Below, one piece after another: positions 4,886 to 64,000 of a DNA stretch of 64,000 nucleotides. The DNA is from an uncultured Clostridia bacterium (GTDB lineage: Bacteria > Bacillota > Clostridia > Christensenellales > CAG-314): contig CALVWF010000001.1 in NCBI GenBank assembly GCA_944364615.1, positions 193,840 through 257,839 of the forward strand. The letters are read 5' to 3'. The translations under genes were made by a program, and so were the position numbers. The notes beneath the pieces were generated by a model. It was not told where the DNA came from. It ran no database searches and saw only the letters and a list, made by a program, of their open reading frames with translations. Each line of letters opens with the position of its first letter. Within the stretch, counting starts at the first letter, position 1.

Positions 4886-4962
4886 GCGCCTTTAGCTCAA
4901 TTGGATAGAGCGTTGGTCTACGGAACCAAAGGTTAGGGATTCGAGCTCCTTAAGGCGCGCCA
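4886..4962 (+). tRNA. tRNA-Arg (anticodon ACG), CCA encoded
   Basis: Cloverleaf folded by hand. Acceptor GCGCCTT/AAGGCGC, D-arm GCTC..GAGC, anticodon stem TTGGT/ACCAA with loop CTACGGA, T-loop TTCGAGC, discriminator G then CCA. Confidence 0.9.
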
Positions 4963-30197: not shown

Positions 30198-30346
30198 AAA
30201 AAAAATGTCTTGCCACAGCAAGACAAGACAACGCACGTTTTTAATGTTGTCCCATCTTCCAAGGCTTACCTTGCGGAATTTAGCACCTTAATATACAGGT
30301 TGCTGTGTCTTCACTGAGTCCGTCTCTCCGACACTCTTGATAGGTT
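30198..30346 (-). promoter_or_regulatory. SAM-I (S-box) riboswitch with terminator expression platform, leader of metK
   Basis: The minus strand reads CCTATCAAGAG-GGAGAGAC-GACTCAGTGAAG-GCAACC...GGTGCTAAATTCCGCAAGG...GGAAGATGGG, matching the S-box core with P1 CCTATC/GATGGG. It is followed by the hairpin tgtcttgc-tgtg-gcaagaca plus T8 (30198-30224). Confidence 0.85.
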
Positions 30347-48578: not shown

Positions 48579-48667
48579 GGAGGCGTATCGAAGCGGTCAC
48601 AACGAGGCGGTCTTGAAAACCGTTTGGGTGCAAGCCCACGGGGGTTCGAATCCCTCCGCCTCCGCCA
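48579..48667 (+). tRNA. tRNA-Ser (anticodon UGA), long variable arm, CCA encoded
   Basis: Acceptor GGAGGCG/CGCCTCC, anticodon stem GCGGT/ACCGT with loop CTTGAAA, variable arm TTGGGTGCAAGCCCACG, T-loop TTCGAAT. Confidence 0.9.
48647..48667 (+). repeat. Direct repeat copy 1 (3' end of tRNA-Ser), putative attL core
   Basis: cgaatccctccgcctccgcca, identical to 53627-53647. Confidence 0.85.
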
Positions 48668-53922: not shown

Positions 53923-55010
53923 GGTGAATTATACTTTCAAGTGCAACACTTTGAGGACAAAAAAAAGGAGTTCATATGAATCTGTTGTATAATTAAAATT
54001 GCAACAAAAAACACAACAGGAGAAATCATATGAACTATAATCATCTTACCATAGAAGAACGCTGTTGTATACGAAAATATTACAACGAAGGAAAAAGTTT
54101 CAGAGAAATTGCAATATTAATTGGCAGAAACGTAAGCACAATATCCAGGGAGATATGGCGAAACAAATCATTTATGAACTGTAAACCTGCATATTATCCA
54201 CAAACGGCACAACGGAAATATTCGCTCAGGCGTAAGTTTTGCCATAGAGGTATGTTCTGGAACATAGAGATTCTGGATTACATAGAGGACAAGCTGAATA
54301 AAACTTGGTCGCCCGATCAGATAGCAAAAACTCCTTGTGAAATAAAAATGCCGTCATTCAAGACAATATATCGCTGGCTGTACCAAGGATATTTGGTGAA
54401 AGGCAACGTAAAAGTATTGAGAAAGAAGGGAAAAACGCGAAAACGACTTGGGAACGGCGGAAAATTTACAACTGGAAAAAGCATACGAAAACGAGATAAA
54501 AGCGTATATAAACGACGAGAAGTCGGACATTGGGAAGTAGATACGGTAGTCAGCGGAATTGGAAAAAGCAAAGCGTGTTTTGCTACGTTTGCGGAAAGAA
54601 AAACGAGGTTTTACATAGCTGTATGGATGCCCGACAGAAAAGCAGAAAGCATGGAAAAAGCATCAGTAAAAGCGTTAGGAGCGTTGCCGTCTGAAATGGT
54701 TAAAAGCATAACTTGCGACAGAGGCAGCGAATTTGGAAATTGGCGCAACATAGAGGAAAAGCTGAAGTGCGAGGTTTACTTAGCAGATCCGTATTGTGCG
54801 TGGCAAAAAGGAACAAATGAAAACAGCAACGGCTTACTGAGAGAGTTTTATCCGAAAGGGCGCAATCTCTCCCACGTGGGAGAGAAAACCCTGAAAAAGA
54901 ATCTGGCGTTGATTAACGCCAGACCTAAAAAAGTACTCGGTTACAAAGCACCGGCAGATTTGTTTGAACAGGAATTGCAAAAAGTGTTGCACTTGGTTTG
55001 ACAATTCACC
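53923..55010 (+). mobile_element. IS30-family insertion sequence (~1.09 kb) with imperfect ~28-bp terminal inverted repeats
   Basis: IRL is ggtgaattatactttcaagtgcaacact. The reverse complement of IRR is ggtgaattgtcaaaccaagtgcaacact. The outer 8 and inner 13 nt are identical. A single transposase ORF runs into IRR. Confidence 0.85.
54030..55001 (+). CDS. IS30 family DDE transposase
   Basis: N-terminal HTH HLTIEERCCIRKYYNEGKSFREIAILIGRNVSTISREIWRN. DDE contexts GHWEVDTV, ITCDRGSEF and WQKGTNENSNGLLREFYPKG. Confidence 0.9.
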   Translation: MNYNHLTIEERCCIRKYYNEGKSFREIAILIGRNVSTISREIWRNKSFMNCKPAYYPQTAQRKYSLRRKFCHRGMFWNIEILDYIEDKLNKTWSPDQIAKTPCEIKMPSFKTIYRWLYQGYLVKGNVKVLRKKGKTRKRLGNGGKFTTGKSIRKRDKSVYKRREVGHWEVDTVVSGIGKSKACFATFAERKTRFYIAVWMPDRKAESMEKASVKALGALPSEMVKSITCDRGSEFGNWRNIEEKLKCEVYLADPYCAWQKGTNENSNGLLREFYPKGRNLSHVGEKTLKKNLALINARPKKVLGYKAPADLFEQELQKVLHLV

Positions 55011-58244: not shown

Positions 58245-61200
58245 TCACATGTTACGCAACATTCGGTAAAATTCTCTTGCCATAGTTTGCATCAATTCCT
58301 GATAATACTCCGTGTCGCTGAATAACTTTTGATAAAAGTCGCCGTTTTCCAAACAGCATTGCGTTGCAATATCTTTAAACTTAGTAGGGAATATAGACTT
58401 TTCAAACATTTCCGGAGTGTTATTTTTGGCAATCTGTTCAAGTCTTTTCAATTCTTTGTCTGCCAAAAACATTTTAAAAATGCTGTCAATCATCGCCCGT
58501 TCGGAATCCTTTAAATTGTCGCTGAAACGTTCGTTCAATTTGTCGATTATATTCTGTAAAGTGTCGGTGCCTGACAATTTACCTTTGGTCCTTCCTGATG
58601 GGAGAATCAGATCCGTATCTTTTTTGTCCAAAATTATTGCTCCGGTAAAAACATCTTTAAATAAAGCGTATTCCAGCTTGATTTTGTCGTCAATTTCTAT
58701 CGGAGTCCTGCTCTCAGGCGACAATTGTTTCAATAAACCTGCACAAAAAACATATTCTCTGAAAAGTTCTTCGTCATGAATTCTAATAAGTTGCGTCACA
58801 TAGGCGTAGCACTTGACAAAGTTACGCACCGCCAGACGAGCATTGAATTTTTCTTCACTGTTCAATTCGTTGTAACGATCCAAAACAGGCTTTATAATTC
58901 TGCTGAAAATTCCAAGGTCTTTTGATGTTTGTTTTGCCTTTCGGTGATTTTCCATAAAATTGTAGTATTTGTCTACGTCTTCGCTGTTGTACAACAAGAA
59001 AGGCTTTATGGCAATACGCAAATCATATACACGGTTAAAATCGCTTCTTCCGTCAAGAAAAACAGATTCGTAATAAGGCTGAAAACTTTCCTTTATTTTT
59101 TCATCGGTATTTACAAAATCGAGTACTAATGTAGAGTTTTTACCCCGACATGTTCTGTTCAGGCGTGAAAGCGTTTGTACTGCATTTACCCCTTTCAGTT
59201 TCTTGTCTATGTACATCGAGTGCAGCAACGCCTCGTCAAATCCCGTCTGATATTTATTGGCTACAACCAGAATGTTGTATTTGTCACTTTTAAACGTCTT
59301 TCTGAATTTTTTGTCGGAGGTGATTGCATTGCCGTTTTCGTCGCAATTCAGCAATGCCTCGGTGTACTCCACCCCGTCTAACGTGACGCTACCTGAAAAG
59401 GCTACCATTACATCGCATCCGATACCTTCTGCGGGATGCTGTTCAATATACTTTTTAATTGCAAAAAAATACCTGATAGCATTGGCGCGGCTGTCGGCAA
59501 CCACCATTGCCTTGCCCTTACCCTCTATCTGAAACCTTCCGTTTGCAAGAAAATTGGACATAATAATGTCTGTTTTTTGCTCTATTGTTCTGCCGTGCTC
59601 TTTGTAATACCTTTCCAATGCCCGTACTGCAGAACTTTCAACAAGTTCGGGATTGTCCTGCGATATTCTGGCAAGACGGAAAAATTCTTTTATTGTCGTA
59701 TAATTTTGCAATACATCCAGAATAAAACCTTCCTCAATCGCCTGACGCATAGAATAAATATGAAAAGGACGCATTTTTCCCGATGCGGAATCAAAGGTTC
59801 CGAACAGTTCCACGGTCTTGCTCTTGGGCGTTGCGGTAAATGCAAAAAAAGATTGATTGGCATGCATACCTTGTGACAGAATAGCGCAAACGATGTCGGA
59901 AGACAGGTCCACTTCCGATTCGTCGATGCCTTCTTCTTCGGCATAGGTCTTGACAGCCTTGTCAATGTCAAGCAGAGACTTGCGCAAGGTTTTGGCACTT
60001 TCGCCCGATTGTCCCTGATGCGCTTCGTCGATTATTACGGCAAACTTTCTGCCCACAAGACTGTCAAAGTCCTTGTACGCAAACAAGAATTTTTGCACCG
60101 TGCAAATGACAATGCGCTTTTTGTCGTTAATGGCTTCTACCAATCCGCGCGATCTTTTTTTATCGTCGATGGCTTCAACAAGCCCGGGCGTGTGATCGAA
60201 ACTGTTTATAGTGTCCTGTAATTGGCTGTCCAACACAATTCTGTTGGTGACAACTACCACCGTGTCAAACACCGCTTCGTCAAAATCGTTGTGCAACGAC
60301 GCCAGTCTATAGGCTATCCAGGCAATAGAGTTGGACTTGCCGCTTCCCGCAGAGTGTTCAATAAGATAACTTTTCCCCACTCCGCATTGCCTTACGTCTG
60401 CTACAATCTTTTTTACTACGTCATACTGATGATAGCGAGGGAAAATCAACTTTTCTTTGATTGCCGTACGAACCGTGCCGTTTTTTACCACTTCTTGCTT
60501 TTCTTTGACAACGCAAATAAAACTGTGTAAAAGATCTAACAGGCTGTCGCGTTGCAATACCTCCTCCCACAAATAGGAGGTAATGTAGCCGTCGGTGCCT
60601 TTGGTCGGATTTCCCTTGCCACCTGAATTGCCCGCTCCGTTGGACCCTTGATTGAAGGGAATAAAATGAGTAAATTCACCTTCCAACTTGGTTGTCATAT
60701 AAACCTCGTACAGGTCTACGGCAAAATAGGCAAGAAAACGATTGTTAAATCGAAAACAAAACTCCTTGGGGTCACGGTCGTTTTTATATTGCATAACGGC
60801 GCAATCTACATTTTGTCCCTTGAACTGATTTTTGAGTTCTAAGGCAACAATGGGAATTCCGTTTAACGACAGCACCATGTCAATTGTGTTGTTGTTAAAT
60901 GGTGAATAAGCAAATTGGCGTGTGACGCCGAGAATATTTTGCGAATACAGTTGCCAATGTGTTTCGTTTAAATTAGACTCGGGCTTGAAATAACAAATTT
61001 TAATGTCAATACCCATGTCCTTAATTCCGTTTTTCAACACATAAACCAAGCCGTATTGAGCAATGCTGTCCTGTAAACGTCGATAGAGTTTGTCGGCGGC
61101 ATCGTCGCCGTAATATCTGACATATCTTTCCCATTGCTTGGGCTGAGTGCGCATTATAAAGTTGACAAGCACTTCCATGTAAATGGCTTTGTTCCTGTCA

Positions 61201-61331
61201 TAAACGTACTTGTGTATTCTGTGCCCGTCGGGATTTACATAAGAAAACTGCTCGTAACCGCCCTGTTCGCTTACGAGAAAACTTTCAATATCCTGTTCAA
61301 AACGCTTTTCAGATGTGTCCATAATTGTCAT
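58245..61331 (-). CDS. hsdR: Type I restriction enzyme R subunit (HsdR)
   Basis: N-terminal nuclease region, SF2 motor motifs IEHSAGSGKSNSIAW (motif I) and VIIDEAHQGQSG (DEAH). 1028 aa. Confidence 0.9.
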   Translation of the reverse strand: MTIMDTSEKRFEQDIESFLVSEQGGYEQFSYVNPDGHRIHKYVYDRNKAIYMEVLVNFIMRTQPKQWERYVRYYGDDAADKLYRRLQDSIAQYGLVYVLKNGIKDMGIDIKICYFKPESNLNETHWQLYSQNILGVTRQFAYSPFNNNTIDMVLSLNGIPIVALELKNQFKGQNVDCAVMQYKNDRDPKEFCFRFNNRFLAYFAVDLYEVYMTTKLEGEFTHFIPFNQGSNGAGNSGGKGNPTKGTDGYITSYLWEEVLQRDSLLDLLHSFICVVKEKQEVVKNGTVRTAIKEKLIFPRYHQYDVVKKIVADVRQCGVGKSYLIEHSAGSGKSNSIAWIAYRLASLHNDFDEAVFDTVVVVTNRIVLDSQLQDTINSFDHTPGLVEAIDDKKRSRGLVEAINDKKRIVICTVQKFLFAYKDFDSLVGRKFAVIIDEAHQGQSGESAKTLRKSLLDIDKAVKTYAEEEGIDESEVDLSSDIVCAILSQGMHANQSFFAFTATPKSKTVELFGTFDSASGKMRPFHIYSMRQAIEEGFILDVLQNYTTIKEFFRLARISQDNPELVESSAVRALERYYKEHGRTIEQKTDIIMSNFLANGRFQIEGKGKAMVVADSRANAIRYFFAIKKYIEQHPAEGIGCDVMVAFSGSVTLDGVEYTEALLNCDENGNAITSDKKFRKTFKSDKYNILVVANKYQTGFDEALLHSMYIDKKLKGVNAVQTLSRLNRTCRGKNSTLVLDFVNTDEKIKESFQPYYESVFLDGRSDFNRVYDLRIAIKPFLLYNSEDVDKYYNFMENHRKAKQTSKDLGIFSRIIKPVLDRYNELNSEEKFNARLAVRNFVKCYAYVTQLIRIHDEELFREYVFCAGLLKQLSPESRTPIEIDDKIKLEYALFKDVFTGAIILDKKDTDLILPSGRTKGKLSGTDTLQNIIDKLNERFSDNLKDSERAMIDSIFKMFLADKELKRLEQIAKNNTPEMFEKSIFPTKFKDIATQCCLENGDFYQKLFSDTEYYQELMQTMAREFYRMLRNM

Positions 61332-61333
61332 TA

Positions 61334-62584
61334 TTACTCCTCTAAAAATTTATCCATTCCCTTACTTCCATTTATGTAAACAAAAGATTTACCCTTATTA
61401 TCATTTTCAGTATTAAAAGACAAATCTAGGACATAAAAATTTCCCAATAAATCTTTTACTAAAACTCCTATTGTATTAATTGGCTGTTCCAAACAAAGAA
61501 CTGAATCTTGTAATGAGAATAAAACAATTTTGTTTTTTTCTACATATAAATTTGATTTTCTCCAATAGTGTTCAGTTCCGTTAAAAATCAACCCTACAAT
61601 AAAACAATCATTGAAATTTATGTTATATAATTTAAAACTTTCTAAAATATAAGGATACTTCCTACTTTCACTTGTCTTTTTTACGACAAAAGTTTTTTTG
61701 TCCACCTCTTCCAGTTTTATTTCGTAATCACTTTCATTTGAACCGTTAAAAAATATAAGTAACGGCTTAAATTTCTTTTTCTCGTCCTCTTGCCTATCAT
61801 TATTTGTTTTTCTTATTGTCCAAGCGACGCCTGCAAGGGTAAGTGATCCGCCAACCACGGCAGAATAGGCGGTGACAAAAATGTTTAGATTCTCATCACT
61901 TAATCCCCACCATTTGATATAGAACGGAAATCCGACAAGCAACCCCGCACCCAATAAAATGTCTAAAGCCAATCTCCATATTTTGACGTCTTCATGGTTG
62001 TTTTTATATGTAAAGAAAGAATTTCTTGCCAGTGTTGTAAGTGCAACAATCCAAAGCACTCCCACACTCAATTTTCTAATTAAAACTCCAGTTTCAGCAT
62101 TTCCAGTATCAACAACCAATACAGACAAAAGCAGACAACCAAGTGCAAAGGAAAAAATGAATACAGCCACTTTTTCTTTACCAAACCAGCCCTCAACTAG
62201 TTTCACAAAATCGAAAGTGCCCAAAAAACAGCCAAAAACTATCGCTAAGCCAACAGCAAAATAAACAATCCCTTCTAATTTATTCGTAAAATATCTTGTA
62301 ACAAATAGTATATATATGATTAAAATTGCAACAAGAAAAGCCCAACCTGAAATGGATTCCCTTGATTTCAATTTCTCTTTACCTTTACTGCGTATAAATT
62401 CTACAAAAAGAAAAACATATCCCGCAAGAAATAGCAAAGATCCTAAAGCCATAAAAAATTTTCCGATGTTGTTAGCCTTCTGAAAATCAAACATTATTGG
62501 TATTAACAGACAATAAAACCAAATTAATGTTAAAACCAAGCCAATGGCCTCAATTAGTACTGATTTATTTTTTAGCTTCGACAT
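61334..62584 (-). CDS. Unknown polytopic membrane protein (~8 TM N-terminal domain plus ~140-aa soluble C-terminal domain) embedded in the hsd operon
   Basis: Eight hydrophobic segments within residues ~8-257. C-terminal domain ...FKPLLIFFNGSNESDYEIKLEEVDKKTFVV...GNFYVLDLSFNTENDNKGKSFVYINGSKG. RBS AAGGAGAG. Its stop lies 2 nt before the hsdR ATG. No family motif recognised. Confidence 0.7.
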   Translation of the reverse strand: MSKLKNKSVLIEAIGLVLTLIWFYCLLIPIMFDFQKANNIGKFFMALGSLLFLAGYVFLFVEFIRSKGKEKLKSRESISGWAFLVAILIIYILFVTRYFTNKLEGIVYFAVGLAIVFGCFLGTFDFVKLVEGWFGKEKVAVFIFSFALGCLLLSVLVVDTGNAETGVLIRKLSVGVLWIVALTTLARNSFFTYKNNHEDVKIWRLALDILLGAGLLVGFPFYIKWWGLSDENLNIFVTAYSAVVGGSLTLAGVAWTIRKTNNDRQEDEKKKFKPLLIFFNGSNESDYEIKLEEVDKKTFVVKKTSESRKYPYILESFKLYNINFNDCFIVGLIFNGTEHYWRKSNLYVEKNKIVLFSLQDSVLCLEQPINTIGVLVKDLLGNFYVLDLSFNTENDNKGKSFVYINGSKGMDKFLEE

Positions 62585-62626
62585 TCACAACTCTCCTTCG
62601 ATGATGTCATTTGTAGAATACAACAA

Positions 62627-62923
62627 TTACTTCAATAGGGCAACTAGCAGTGCTACAAGAGATATGACTGTAGTAACTGCAAAAGTTAACCAAGAAAAAT
62701 TCTTTGCCCTTCGTGCTTCAGCGGTAGCTCGTCTTTCATTTTCAATTGACTGTTCCAGTTGTTTTTGCAACAATGAGTTTTGCTTTTGCAATTCCAGTAC
62801 CAAAGGCTGATTGATCATTTGCTCACGTTTTATATGTTTTTCCTCCTCCAATTTAGCCTTTCGTTCCTCTTCCTCCGCTTCTATCGCCAAACTGTAGGCA
62901 GAATGAGTCCCAAATTCTTGCAT
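62627..62923 (-). CDS. Unknown small tail-anchored protein (charged coiled-coil-like N-terminus plus C-terminal TM)
   Basis: EAEEEERKAKLEEEKHIKREQ...LELQKQNSLLQKQLEQSIENERRATAEARRAKN, then FSWLTFAVTTVISLVALLVALLK. The ATG lies 4 nt after the hsdS stop, with AAGGAGG inside the hsdS 3' end. Confidence 0.65.
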   Translation of the reverse strand: MQEFGTHSAYSLAIEAEEEERKAKLEEEKHIKREQMINQPLVLELQKQNSLLQKQLEQSIENERRATAEARRAKNFSWLTFAVTTVISLVALLVALLK

Positions 62924-62927
62924 GAAC

Positions 62928-64000
62928 TCAAACCTCCTTTTTTCCTGTGACGTACTCGTAAATCAGAGACTTTTTGTGCTGTTGCAGTTTGTCAATTTTT
63001 TGTTGTTTGATGGCAATCAGTTGGTCAATCTTACCGCATTTGTCATCCAAGTAATCAGCAATTTGCTGTTGGGTTTCTGTACTTGGCAAAGCAAAGGGGA
63101 AATTTTTAACAAACGACGGCGAAACTCTTTTTAAGCCACCTGTTCCGTTCATTGTAGACTTTGCATGTTCAGTAAAAATTCTGTTCTGCAATAAATATAA
63201 CAAAAACTTTCCTACTACTTCTTTAGGTCTAAATACGAACAACTCAGAACTGCCACATCCGATTTTATTAGTAAGACCTTGCGCAATAGCAATATTGCCG
63301 TTTTCAAAACATGGAGTTACCTTCGCCATTATTATATCATTTTCAATAAACCACGTGAGACCTGTTGGTACACTTTTTACGTCTATTTCTCTGTTTATTA
63401 TATATCCATTCTTTACACACTCCATTGGCAAATAACTGACAATATCAATTGAACTATCGCATTTGTTTTGAGTAGGATTAAGAGTGCATATATTTTTAAT
63501 TCTAGTCATCACCCAACCTTGAGGGATTTGTCCAATCCATTCAATTCCACTGTCTTTCATGGGGACGGTGGGATCCAATCCCTTGGTAACGGCTTCGGTG
63601 ATTACCGACTGCTTGTACTCCTTCAACTTGCCAATCTGCTCCTGCTGATTGGCAATAAGTTTGTCAATTTCCGCACACTTAATTTCTATTTTATTTACAA
63701 TAACCTGTTGTTCTTCTACATTAGGATATGGGATCAGTAATTGTCCCATATCAACTGCATTCAATGCACTTCTTACACCATTTCCACCAAGACTATTGAA
63801 AACACAATTGTAATACATTGACATTAAAAAATAATACACAAATTTGCTGTATTGATTTTCATTCTTAGGACAAAAGCGTATATATGCTGGCGACACAAGC
63901 CCGTCGAAAGGTGACAATCCTACACGACTAGTGCTAATGTTCTGCAAATCAATCATTTTGAAAATAAAATCGTCCTTGTGCAAAATTTGATAGCCGTCAA
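62928..64000 (-). CDS. hsdS: Type I restriction-modification specificity subunit (HsdS), 5'-partial at window edge
   Basis: Two target-recognition domains separated by conserved helices: LIANQQEQIGKLKEYKQSVITEAVTKGLDP and LIAIKQQKIDKLQQHKKSLIYEYVTGKK. The reading frame stays open to position 64000. Confidence 0.85.
   Translation of the reverse strand, partial: DGYQILHKDDFIFKMIDLQNISTSRVGLSPFDGLVSPAYIRFCPKNENQYSKFVYYFLMSMYYNCVFNSLGGNGVRSALNAVDMGQLLIPYPNVEEQQVIVNKIEIKCAEIDKLIANQQEQIGKLKEYKQSVITEAVTKGLDPTVPMKDSGIEWIGQIPQGWVMTRIKNICTLNPTQNKCDSSIDIVSYLPMECVKNGYIINREIDVKSVPTGLTWFIENDIIMAKVTPCFENGNIAIAQGLTNKIGCGSSELFVFRPKEVVGKFLLYLLQNRIFTEHAKSTMNGTGGLKRVSPSFVKNFPFALPSTETQQQIADYLDDKCGKIDQLIAIKQQKIDKLQQHKKSLIYEYVTGKKEV

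Follow-up and report, generated by a model that had tools for sequence, protein, structure and literature searches.

The window analyzed here is a stretch of 64,000 nucleotides (nt) from an uncultured Clostridia bacterium (assembly GCA_944364615.1, contig CALVWF010000001.1, positions 193,840 to 257,839), in which a Type I restriction-modification (R-M) operon carries genes for a 98-amino-acid (aa) and a 416-aa membrane protein between its hsdS and hsdR. Our data revealed that the family of the 416-aa protein shows a strong and specific preference for positions next to the nuclease/translocase genes of Type I and Type III systems, and otherwise occurs mostly in neighborhoods of the defense-island type. 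We infer that the 416-aa gene is an accessory module against phages or other mobile genetic elements inside restriction operons, not a subunit of the restriction enzyme, and, judged from sequence, its family would contribute to defense. An accessory gene embedded in a restriction operon is of a known kind; the protein family and its architecture are new.

Placement of the family beside restriction genes

Homologous loci were retrieved (labeled L001 onward, with L001-L006 being public contigs identical to the window), and one genome per species (GTDB) gave a species-level sample of 80 loci. These came mainly from gut and rumen Clostridia (Oscillospiraceae, Acutalibacteraceae, and Christensenellaceae), along with a few Bacilli and Acholeplasmatales and single loci labeled Paceibacterota, Gastranaerophilales, and Parasutterella. 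Close homologs of the 416-aa gene were all situated between hsdS and hsdR, in Type I operons that otherwise differed. At the species level, the strict arrangement of hsdS, family gene, and hsdR was observed in 30 of 80 loci, a Type I subunit gene lay within three genes of the family gene in 42 of 80, and hsdR was the immediate next gene in 33 of 78. Viewed from hsdR, 39 such genes were present in this sample, and 33 of them occupied position +1 relative to the family gene; the stop of the family gene and the start of hsdR were separated by -38 to +3 nt, usually by -8, -4, or +1. In metagenomes, which were sampled independently (68 loci without duplicates), hsdR came next in 29 of 55 cases and hsdS directly before in 29 of 59. 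The R-M association, which an earlier sequence-only reading had guessed from this one locus, thus recurs across many species (33/78 and 29/55).

The association extended to a Type III-like arrangement in at least seven loci (L144, 1091-6720; L046, L081, L146, L157, L170, and L186), in which an N6_N4_Mtase mod gene and a res gene for a ResIII protein of about 870 aa were followed, 9 nt after res, by the family gene. In about half of the loci, neither Type I nor Type III genes occurred within three genes of the family gene. Most annotated neighbors in these other loci were of the defense type, including C5 and EcoRI-type methylases, a Type IIG/ISP enzyme, GmrSD-HNH-DUF4268, Schlafen-type (SLFN) and SNF2 helicases, and a DUF4011/AAA_11/AAA_12/MTES_1575 helicase-nuclease. 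AbiTii, Abi_2, RES, ThsB-TIR, STALD, HipA, DUF4062, DUF6119, T5orf172, and PADLOC PDC-S57 were also among them. The homolog neighborhoods, whose inspection had been proposed along with the R-M guess, therefore proved to be mostly R-M or defense. A tblastn search found no match in 72,556 plasmid records or 50,697 phage records. The sole IMG/VR locus carried a family gene followed by an overlapping open reading frame (ORF) of 1015 aa in the position of hsdR, the identity of this ORF being taken from its position only.

Organization of the locus

All genes from hsdS to hsdR were on the minus strand, in the same orientation and closely packed, as seen in the ORF list and the sequence itself. The features, in the direction of transcription, were as follows (TM, transmembrane helix; AF2, AlphaFold2 model).

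62928 to beyond 64000, minus strand: hsdS, Type I specificity subunit, 3' part (Pfam Methylase_S; PADLOC Specificity_I, E 1e-79)
62627 to 62923, minus strand: 98-aa gene, tail-anchored coiled-coil protein (ORF, junctions, TM prediction, homologs)
62585 to 62626, minus strand: 42-nt spacer with the ribosome-binding site GAAGGAGAG of the 416-aa gene (sequence read)
61334 to 62584, minus strand: 416-aa gene, polytopic membrane protein (ORF; stop codon 61334-61336)
61895 to 62584, minus strand: residues 1-230 of the 416-aa gene, variable N-terminal block TM1-TM7 (hydropathy, AF2 helices)
61763 to 61930, minus strand: residues 219-274 of the 416-aa gene, conserved core of loop, TM8, stalk, and P274 (65-member alignment, AF2)
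61337 to 61762, minus strand: residues 275-416 of the 416-aa gene, predicted cytoplasmic all-beta sandwich-like domain (AF2, conservation)
58245 to 61331, minus strand: hsdR, Type I restriction subunit (Pfam HSDR_N, ResIII, SWI2_SNF2, T1R_D3-like; PADLOC REase_I, E 3e-41)

The window edge cuts hsdS, the real start of which lies about 190 nt past the window end, and the complete gene encodes 421 aa (L001). At the junction of hsdS and the 98-aa gene, TGA is followed by 4 nt (GTTC) and ATG, with the Shine-Dalgarno sequence AAGGAGG inside hsdS. The 42 nt that include GAAGGAGAG lead to the ATG of the 416-aa gene, which ends in GAG GAG TAA; the hsdR ATG comes after a further TA, starting 2 nt past the stop. 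The minus strand had no terminator-like hairpin from hsdS to hsdR, the nearest one downstream of hsdR being at 58124-58107, and the four genes are presumably co-transcribed. The gene order, spacings, and Shine-Dalgarno sites agreed with those of the sequence-only reading, which had also noted by eye that this stretch is rich in AT: the GC content was 33.5% for the two-gene stretch and 31.9% for the 416-aa gene versus 44.2% for the window, placing the two-gene stretch among the 0.3% of equally long sliding windows that are lowest in GC. The window HsdR had no PDB homolog in a phmmer search (E<=1e-3) and could not be placed in a Type I family via solved structures, which are expected to include the EcoKI and EcoR124I enzymes.

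Family, topology, and predicted structure of the 416-aa protein

An exhaustive HMMER search yielded 323 clusters (50% identity) at E<=1e-3 and 115 at E<=1e-10, a family size badly under-reported by a word-index search (8 clusters). The 416-aa protein had nothing above threshold in Pfam, NCBIfam, PHROGs, or PADLOC-DB v2, both window proteins matched zero PADLOC v2 families among 5027 models even at E<=1, and the family profile had no match among PDB sequences. Run on 65 relatives, these profile libraries likewise gave nothing above threshold; against Pfam there was no family match, with just isolated single sub-threshold ones, and one of the 65 weakly matched the PADLOC candidate PDC-S32 (E 1.5e-5 and 1.9e-4), for which the window protein gave nothing at E<=1. 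Identity as a transporter or housekeeping membrane family, an assignment that the proposed profile searches might have returned, found no support, the best Pfam and NCBIfam scores being far under the cut-offs and no PDB sequence or fold match being obtained. Our literature search found nothing on the family, on membrane proteins in the slot between hsdS and hsdR, or on PDC-S32. The statement that neither protein matches a named family or system was thereby upheld in Pfam, NCBIfam, PHROGs, PADLOC, and PDB.

Hydropathy indicated eight TM helices, also present in the AF2 model, followed by a 163-aa C-terminal tail, in line with the earlier description of about eight TM helices and a soluble C-terminal domain. 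The distribution of positive charges (positive-inside) points to an N-in/C-in topology with a cytoplasmic tail, and the outer loops were short (9-14 residues). Family members typically have 400-450 aa, 6-8 TM helices, and a tail of 140-195 aa, with eight helices plus a tail of roughly 160-190 aa as the consistent architecture. In the 65-member alignment, conservation was found in an extracytoplasmic loop, FPFYxxW(C/W)GL; in the TM8 motif GGxLTLxGVAWTI(K/R), where G246, G252, and V253 are invariant; in a charged stalk segment, RKEEExKK, terminating in the invariant P274; and in the tail at N321, K350, D378, N382, and Y384, of which all except K350 are near-invariant. The stretch from TM7 via this loop to TM8 forms the invariant core of the family. 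The conserved TM residues are glycine, aromatic, and proline, and the alignment contained no catalytic-looking constellation of residues. An internal 4+4 TM duplication was considered and rejected (hhalign of the two halves, probability 15%).

Structural modeling of the full protein with the family alignment as input (predicted local distance difference test score [pLDDT], 88.9; predicted template modeling score [pTM], 0.70) showed TM8 running on as a straight continuous helix over residues 230-271, followed by an all-beta, sandwich-like domain at residues 276-412; the C-terminal domain alone was modeled with a pLDDT of 89.9 and a pTM of 0.84. According to the model, the stiff, charged helical stalk places the beta-sandwich a few nanometers beneath the membrane on its cytoplasmic side. 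Foldseek of the full model against PDB returned nothing at E below 0.05, and the C-terminal domain gave a best E of 0.024 with template modeling scores (TM-scores) of at most 0.33, the matches being just generic Ig-like, MSP, and actinoporin sandwiches. Two uncharacterized viral proteins of about 250 aa were matched in BFVD (A0A6G5Y3T4, E 1.6e-5; A0A8S5R7G4, E 2.5e-4) with high Foldseek probability, yet their TM-score was just about 0.33. As modeled, the cytoplasmic beta domain is new and has no structural analog.

Two further loci were informative on the stalk: L100 (6406-7794) and L103 (6406-7695) encode proteins that differ in the number of 11-residue RREDLERIDKE repeats in this segment and are otherwise identical, giving 462 aa and 429 aa, respectively. 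A variable repeat number would fit a rigid spacer.

The 98-aa protein, an optional partner

The 98-aa protein has one TM helix by hydropathy (residues 79-97) with a single residue after it, and is thus predicted to be tail-anchored. From its N-terminus, it consists of a cytoplasmic coiled coil carrying a conserved QxQN motif, the motif A(K/R)xxKxFSWxSF, and the C-terminal TM, a design that matched the charged coiled-coil segment and single C-terminal TM described earlier from the sequence. ORFs of the same design were found directly upstream of family genes in L015, L018, L019, L042, L043, L063, L069, L072, and L173. A profile of these small proteins retrieved 174 clusters of 100-138 aa, versus 2 clusters retrieved by the word-index search for the 98-aa protein.

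No family above threshold was obtained in Pfam, NCBIfam, PHROGs, or PADLOC for the 98-aa protein or for nine of its relatives. Small proteins such as DUF2951, XhlA-like, and SseC- or EssA-like proteins share its length of about 100 aa, N-terminal coiled coil, and single C-terminal TM, but their matches fell below curated cut-offs and the FSWxSF motif is specific to the 98-aa family. A holin, XhlA, or DUF2951-like identity was accordingly rejected (DUF2951, E 0.014 and 16 bits against a cut-off of 26.7; PHROG holin, E 0.13). Relatives of the 98-aa protein gave sub-threshold matches to SseC (best E 8.9e-5) or EssA. The DUF2951, SseC, and EssA matches come from the composition of a coiled coil plus TM.

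The view that the two genes form one conserved pair did not hold. The small partner accompanied the family gene in about 8 of 80 species-level loci (~10%), was sampled in L100-L103 upstream of the family gene in a non-R-M island, and also occurs where the large protein does not. The 98-aa protein is thus a true family, yet an optional and non-exclusive partner of the 416-aa family. A more distant homolog of 110 aa was seen in L098 (6001-8577), upstream of a 131-aa ORF and Ku/LigD, at a locus with no 416-aa family member. In the Type I operon of L104 (3788-12027), a homolog of the small protein lies between hsdM and hsdS, and the position directly upstream of hsdR is taken by an unrelated multi-TM protein of 286 aa that ends in a short, beta-rich tail, which the family hidden Markov model misses and which looks like an analogous occupant of the slot upstream of hsdR.

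Exchange of the N-terminal block and evolution of the family

L012, a strain variant that shares the chromosomal flanks of the window, was 97% identical to it over the 3' part of hsdS and 99.3% identical from the TM8 motif through hsdR. Between these parts, 1.1 kb of the window carrying the 98-aa gene and TM1-7 (61832-62931) was replaced by 569 bp of unrelated DNA (L012, 9126-9694), which codes for another, shorter TM block and lacks the small gene. The N-terminal TM block and the small partner are therefore swapped as one cassette, with the breakpoint at the conserved TM8. In the same variant, hsdM and hsdR were each broken into two ORFs. Within the 416-aa gene, comparison with an 89% identical relative (L015) gave a synonymous divergence (dS) of 0.67 over residues 1-230 versus 0.03 in the remainder. 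The ratios of nonsynonymous to synonymous divergence (dN/dS) against L015, 0.38 for the large inserted gene and 0.45 for the small one (hsdS, 0.08), indicate that both are under purifying selection. The same gene order is kept by diverged homologs of both genes.

Pairwise distances were compared by Spearman rank correlation across 29 complete operons. HsdR and HsdM distances correlated at 0.88, whereas the 416-aa family correlated at 0.24 with HsdM and at 0.18 with HsdR. With a median of 0.78, distances within the family approach saturation, which limits the power of this comparison. The correlation between the N-terminal block and the C-terminal domain of the family was -0.01. Correlations this low would be expected of a cassette shuffled among operons and less so of a co-adapted subunit. 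The R-M genes around the family gene, its N-terminal block, and its C-terminal domain have each been shuffled independently of the others.

Comparison with known systems

PrrC, which is soluble and ABC-ATPase-like and bears a tRNA nuclease domain at its C-terminus, is encoded between the hsdS and hsdR genes of a Type I operon. The sequence-only reading had likened the pair to PrrC, and part of this analogy stands: like PrrC and RloC, the 416-aa gene is an accessory gene in the slot between hsdS and hsdR on the same strand, and relatives of both also occur outside R-M loci. The 416-aa protein differs in consisting of eight TM helices and a beta-sandwich, with no P-loop, nuclease motif, NTPase or nuclease domain, or sequence or profile similarity to them. 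The more specific proposal of a PrrC-type guard fared less well, since about half of the homologs are outside Type I operons, some follow a Type III res, and the family distances are not tied to those of HsdR and HsdM.

Genes embedded in Type I, BREX, and DISARM operons often turn out to be defense systems (bioRxiv 10.1101/2024.01.29.577857; PMC11411939). Payne et al. (2024) predicted 145 defense candidates by embedding, of which seven were confirmed (bioRxiv 10.1101/2024.01.29.577857), and TgvAB of Vibrio cholerae VPI-2 is a two-gene system that is located within a Type I operon and is HsdR-independent (PMC11411939). The 416-aa family resembles these in being nested in Type I operons and recurrent in many non-redundant ones, but their tested examples are soluble nucleases and ATPases and the 416-aa family consists of membrane proteins. 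Guilt by embedding looks for recurrent same-strand nesting in a known defense operon by a gene that is neither mobilome, housekeeping, nor a known defense protein. The family was strictly nested between hsdS and hsdR in 30 of the 80 loci, and the searches of profile libraries (including PADLOC v2, which we assume to contain the Payne et al. candidates), plasmids, and phages were empty apart from the weak PDC-S32 match of one relative.

Among membrane systems, ZorAB of Zorya is a membrane-embedded phage sensor that acts with DNA-targeting partners. Kiwa likewise has a membrane sensor acting with a DNA-targeting partner (PMC11785009). With Kiwa KwaA-KwaB and Zorya, the 416-aa family shares a polytopic membrane component encoded beside a DNA-acting enzyme, and sensing at DNA entry would be plausible for it. 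In contrast, it has no sequence similarity to either system (PADLOC models, E<=1), it does not co-evolve with HsdR, and its link to a nuclease is one of gene context; KwaA, moreover, has four TM helices and no beta-sandwich, unlike the 416-aa protein. As candidates for either window protein, TM effectors of CBASS and Pycsar, Kiwa KwaA, Zorya ZorA/B, and AbiTii were rejected for lack of a PADLOC-DB v2 match at E<=1.

Possible functions

The reading that we prefer, and hold tentatively, is that the 416-aa family is an independent membrane defense module in which a variable sensing block is joined to a conserved transmitting or oligomerizing core and the output is growth arrest or permeabilization. 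We prefer it because of the independent shuffling, the many contexts other than Type I, and the absence of a switch domain. The fast-changing TM block and the tail-anchored 98-aa partner would detect an infection-linked event in the membrane, such as insertion of a phage protein of the ejection, tape-measure, or holin type, or loss of membrane potential, and the conserved TM8, stalk, and beta-sandwich would pass the signal on. Growth arrest or membrane permeabilization could then follow from oligomerization on the glycine-rich TM8, serving as a second line of defense when restriction fails; local recruitment or activation of the neighboring nuclease would be a less likely output. The sequence-only reading had offered abortive infection by membrane disruption as an example, and no feature of the sequence requires it.

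Several points weigh against this preferred reading. Among the 65 aligned members, no conserved charged or polar residue that might mark a channel is located inside the TM helices, and no domain with a known biochemical activity was found in the family. Housekeeping genes (YfhO, PPDK, fumarase, NUDIX, and a serine hydrolase) were neighbors at a minority of loci. The loci were fetched via one exact peptide motif, so that the sample is skewed to one part of the family, and genes were called by a simple ORF picker with subunits labeled by jackhmmer, without curated annotation. The near saturation of the family distances belongs here as well.

Less probable, yet a rival to be taken seriously, is an R-M-coupled partner in which the beta-sandwich binds HsdR or Res, either as a membrane tether where foreign DNA enters or as a guard of the PrrC kind, silenced by the intact enzyme and damaging the membrane once the enzyme is inhibited. 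Older reports describe EcoKI as membrane-associated. The position beside the nuclease/translocase gene, upstream of hsdR in 33 loci and 9 nt downstream of the Type III res, is what such a partner would show, as are the slot shared with PrrC, the cytoplasmic C-terminal domain, and the fact that this domain stays tied to hsdR at 99% identity between strains while the N-terminal block is swapped; Kiwa provides a precedent for a membrane sensor with a DNA-acting partner (PMC11785009). The wider distribution of the family argues otherwise, with about half of the loci being free of Type I and Type III genes up to a distance of three genes and with an association that reaches unrelated enzymes such as C5 methylases, GmrSD, and SLFN helicases. 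The correlations of 0.18-0.24 with HsdR and HsdM, compared with 0.88 between those two subunits, point the same way, as do the lack of an NTPase or other switch domain and the general ability of Type I enzymes to work without such a partner.

A more doubtful possibility is that the family represents a new class of membrane-embedded infection sensor coupling ATP-dependent restriction enzymes (Type I HsdR, Type III Res) to the cytoplasmic membrane. Phage entry machinery would be recognized by the exchangeable TM block and its tail-anchored coiled-coil partner, and the conserved stalk and beta-sandwich would serve to dock the nuclease where DNA enters, to license it there, or, with the nuclease blocked, to kill the cell by depolarization. 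If true, such a sensor would be a membrane-acting counterpart of PrrC, following the logic of Kiwa and Zorya.

It is improbable that the gene is a non-immune passenger of mobile R-M cassettes, for example with an envelope maintenance, island-stabilizing, or addiction role. The absence of recognizable effector chemistry, the housekeeping neighbors at several loci, and the low GC content with a nearby IS30-type transposase, which fit mobile DNA generally, would all suit a passenger. A passenger would not, however, be expected beside hsdR or res far above chance (33/78; 29/55) in an association spanning several phyla, and the gene has been kept under purifying selection with mostly defense genes as its other neighbors. 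An entry blocker of the superinfection-exclusion type, disturbing phage genome ejection or channel formation with a variable TM block that sets phage specificity, is the least probable of all: the hypervariable N-terminal block exchanged as a cassette, the call of the protein as wholly membrane-embedded, and the two viral proteins that are the sole high-probability Foldseek matches speak for it, but the outer loops have merely 9-14 residues, the conserved soluble domain is cytoplasmic, the viral TM-scores are just about 0.33, and the family is nearly absent from phage collections (tblastn, 0/50,697; one IMG/VR locus, with a family gene and an hsdR-like ORF).

Accessory genes within restriction operons have proved to be a source of new immune systems, and the characterized ones are soluble nucleases and NTPases. 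The 416-aa family could turn out to be a new type of effector or sensor, namely a polytopic membrane protein with a new cytoplasmic fold, or alternatively the first dedicated link of classical restriction to the membrane that foreign DNA crosses. It is concentrated in uncultured gut and rumen Clostridia, whose defense repertoire is poorly covered by RefSeq-based catalogs, which is probably why it has no name. At just 1.6 kb, the two-gene pair can readily be cloned with or without the operon, and the 416-aa family appears to be a good candidate for a new anti-phage component.

The wider operon and its surroundings

In the contigs identical to the window (L001-L006), the full operon reads hsdM, a KAP-family NTPase gene, a gene for an AbiJ_NTD4/Abi_C protein, hsdS, the 98-aa gene, the 416-aa gene, and hsdR. 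The KAP-family NTPase (465 aa) and the AbiJ_NTD4/Abi_C protein (312 aa) are both encoded between hsdM and hsdS (L001, 4101-9657, past window position 64000), and this Type I operon thus holds three embedded inserts rather than one. KAP NTPase genes were also seen in other loci of the family (L011, L012, L015, L035, L037, L040, L062, L082, L129, and L131).

Glycerate kinase and GH2 genes flank the operon on one side, and GH31 and NUDIX genes on the other, with an IS30-type transposase near the operon in some strains. At 54030-55001, the window has a 323-aa ORF whose counterpart in L001 is annotated HTH_38 and rve (IS30-type transposase). L002 has no transposase ORF at that position, indicating that the region downstream of the operon differs among strains. 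Elsewhere, an Rfam scan of the whole window identified a SAM riboswitch at 30249-30346 on the minus strand (75 bits) and two tRNA genes on the plus strand, at 4886-4959 and 48579-48664.

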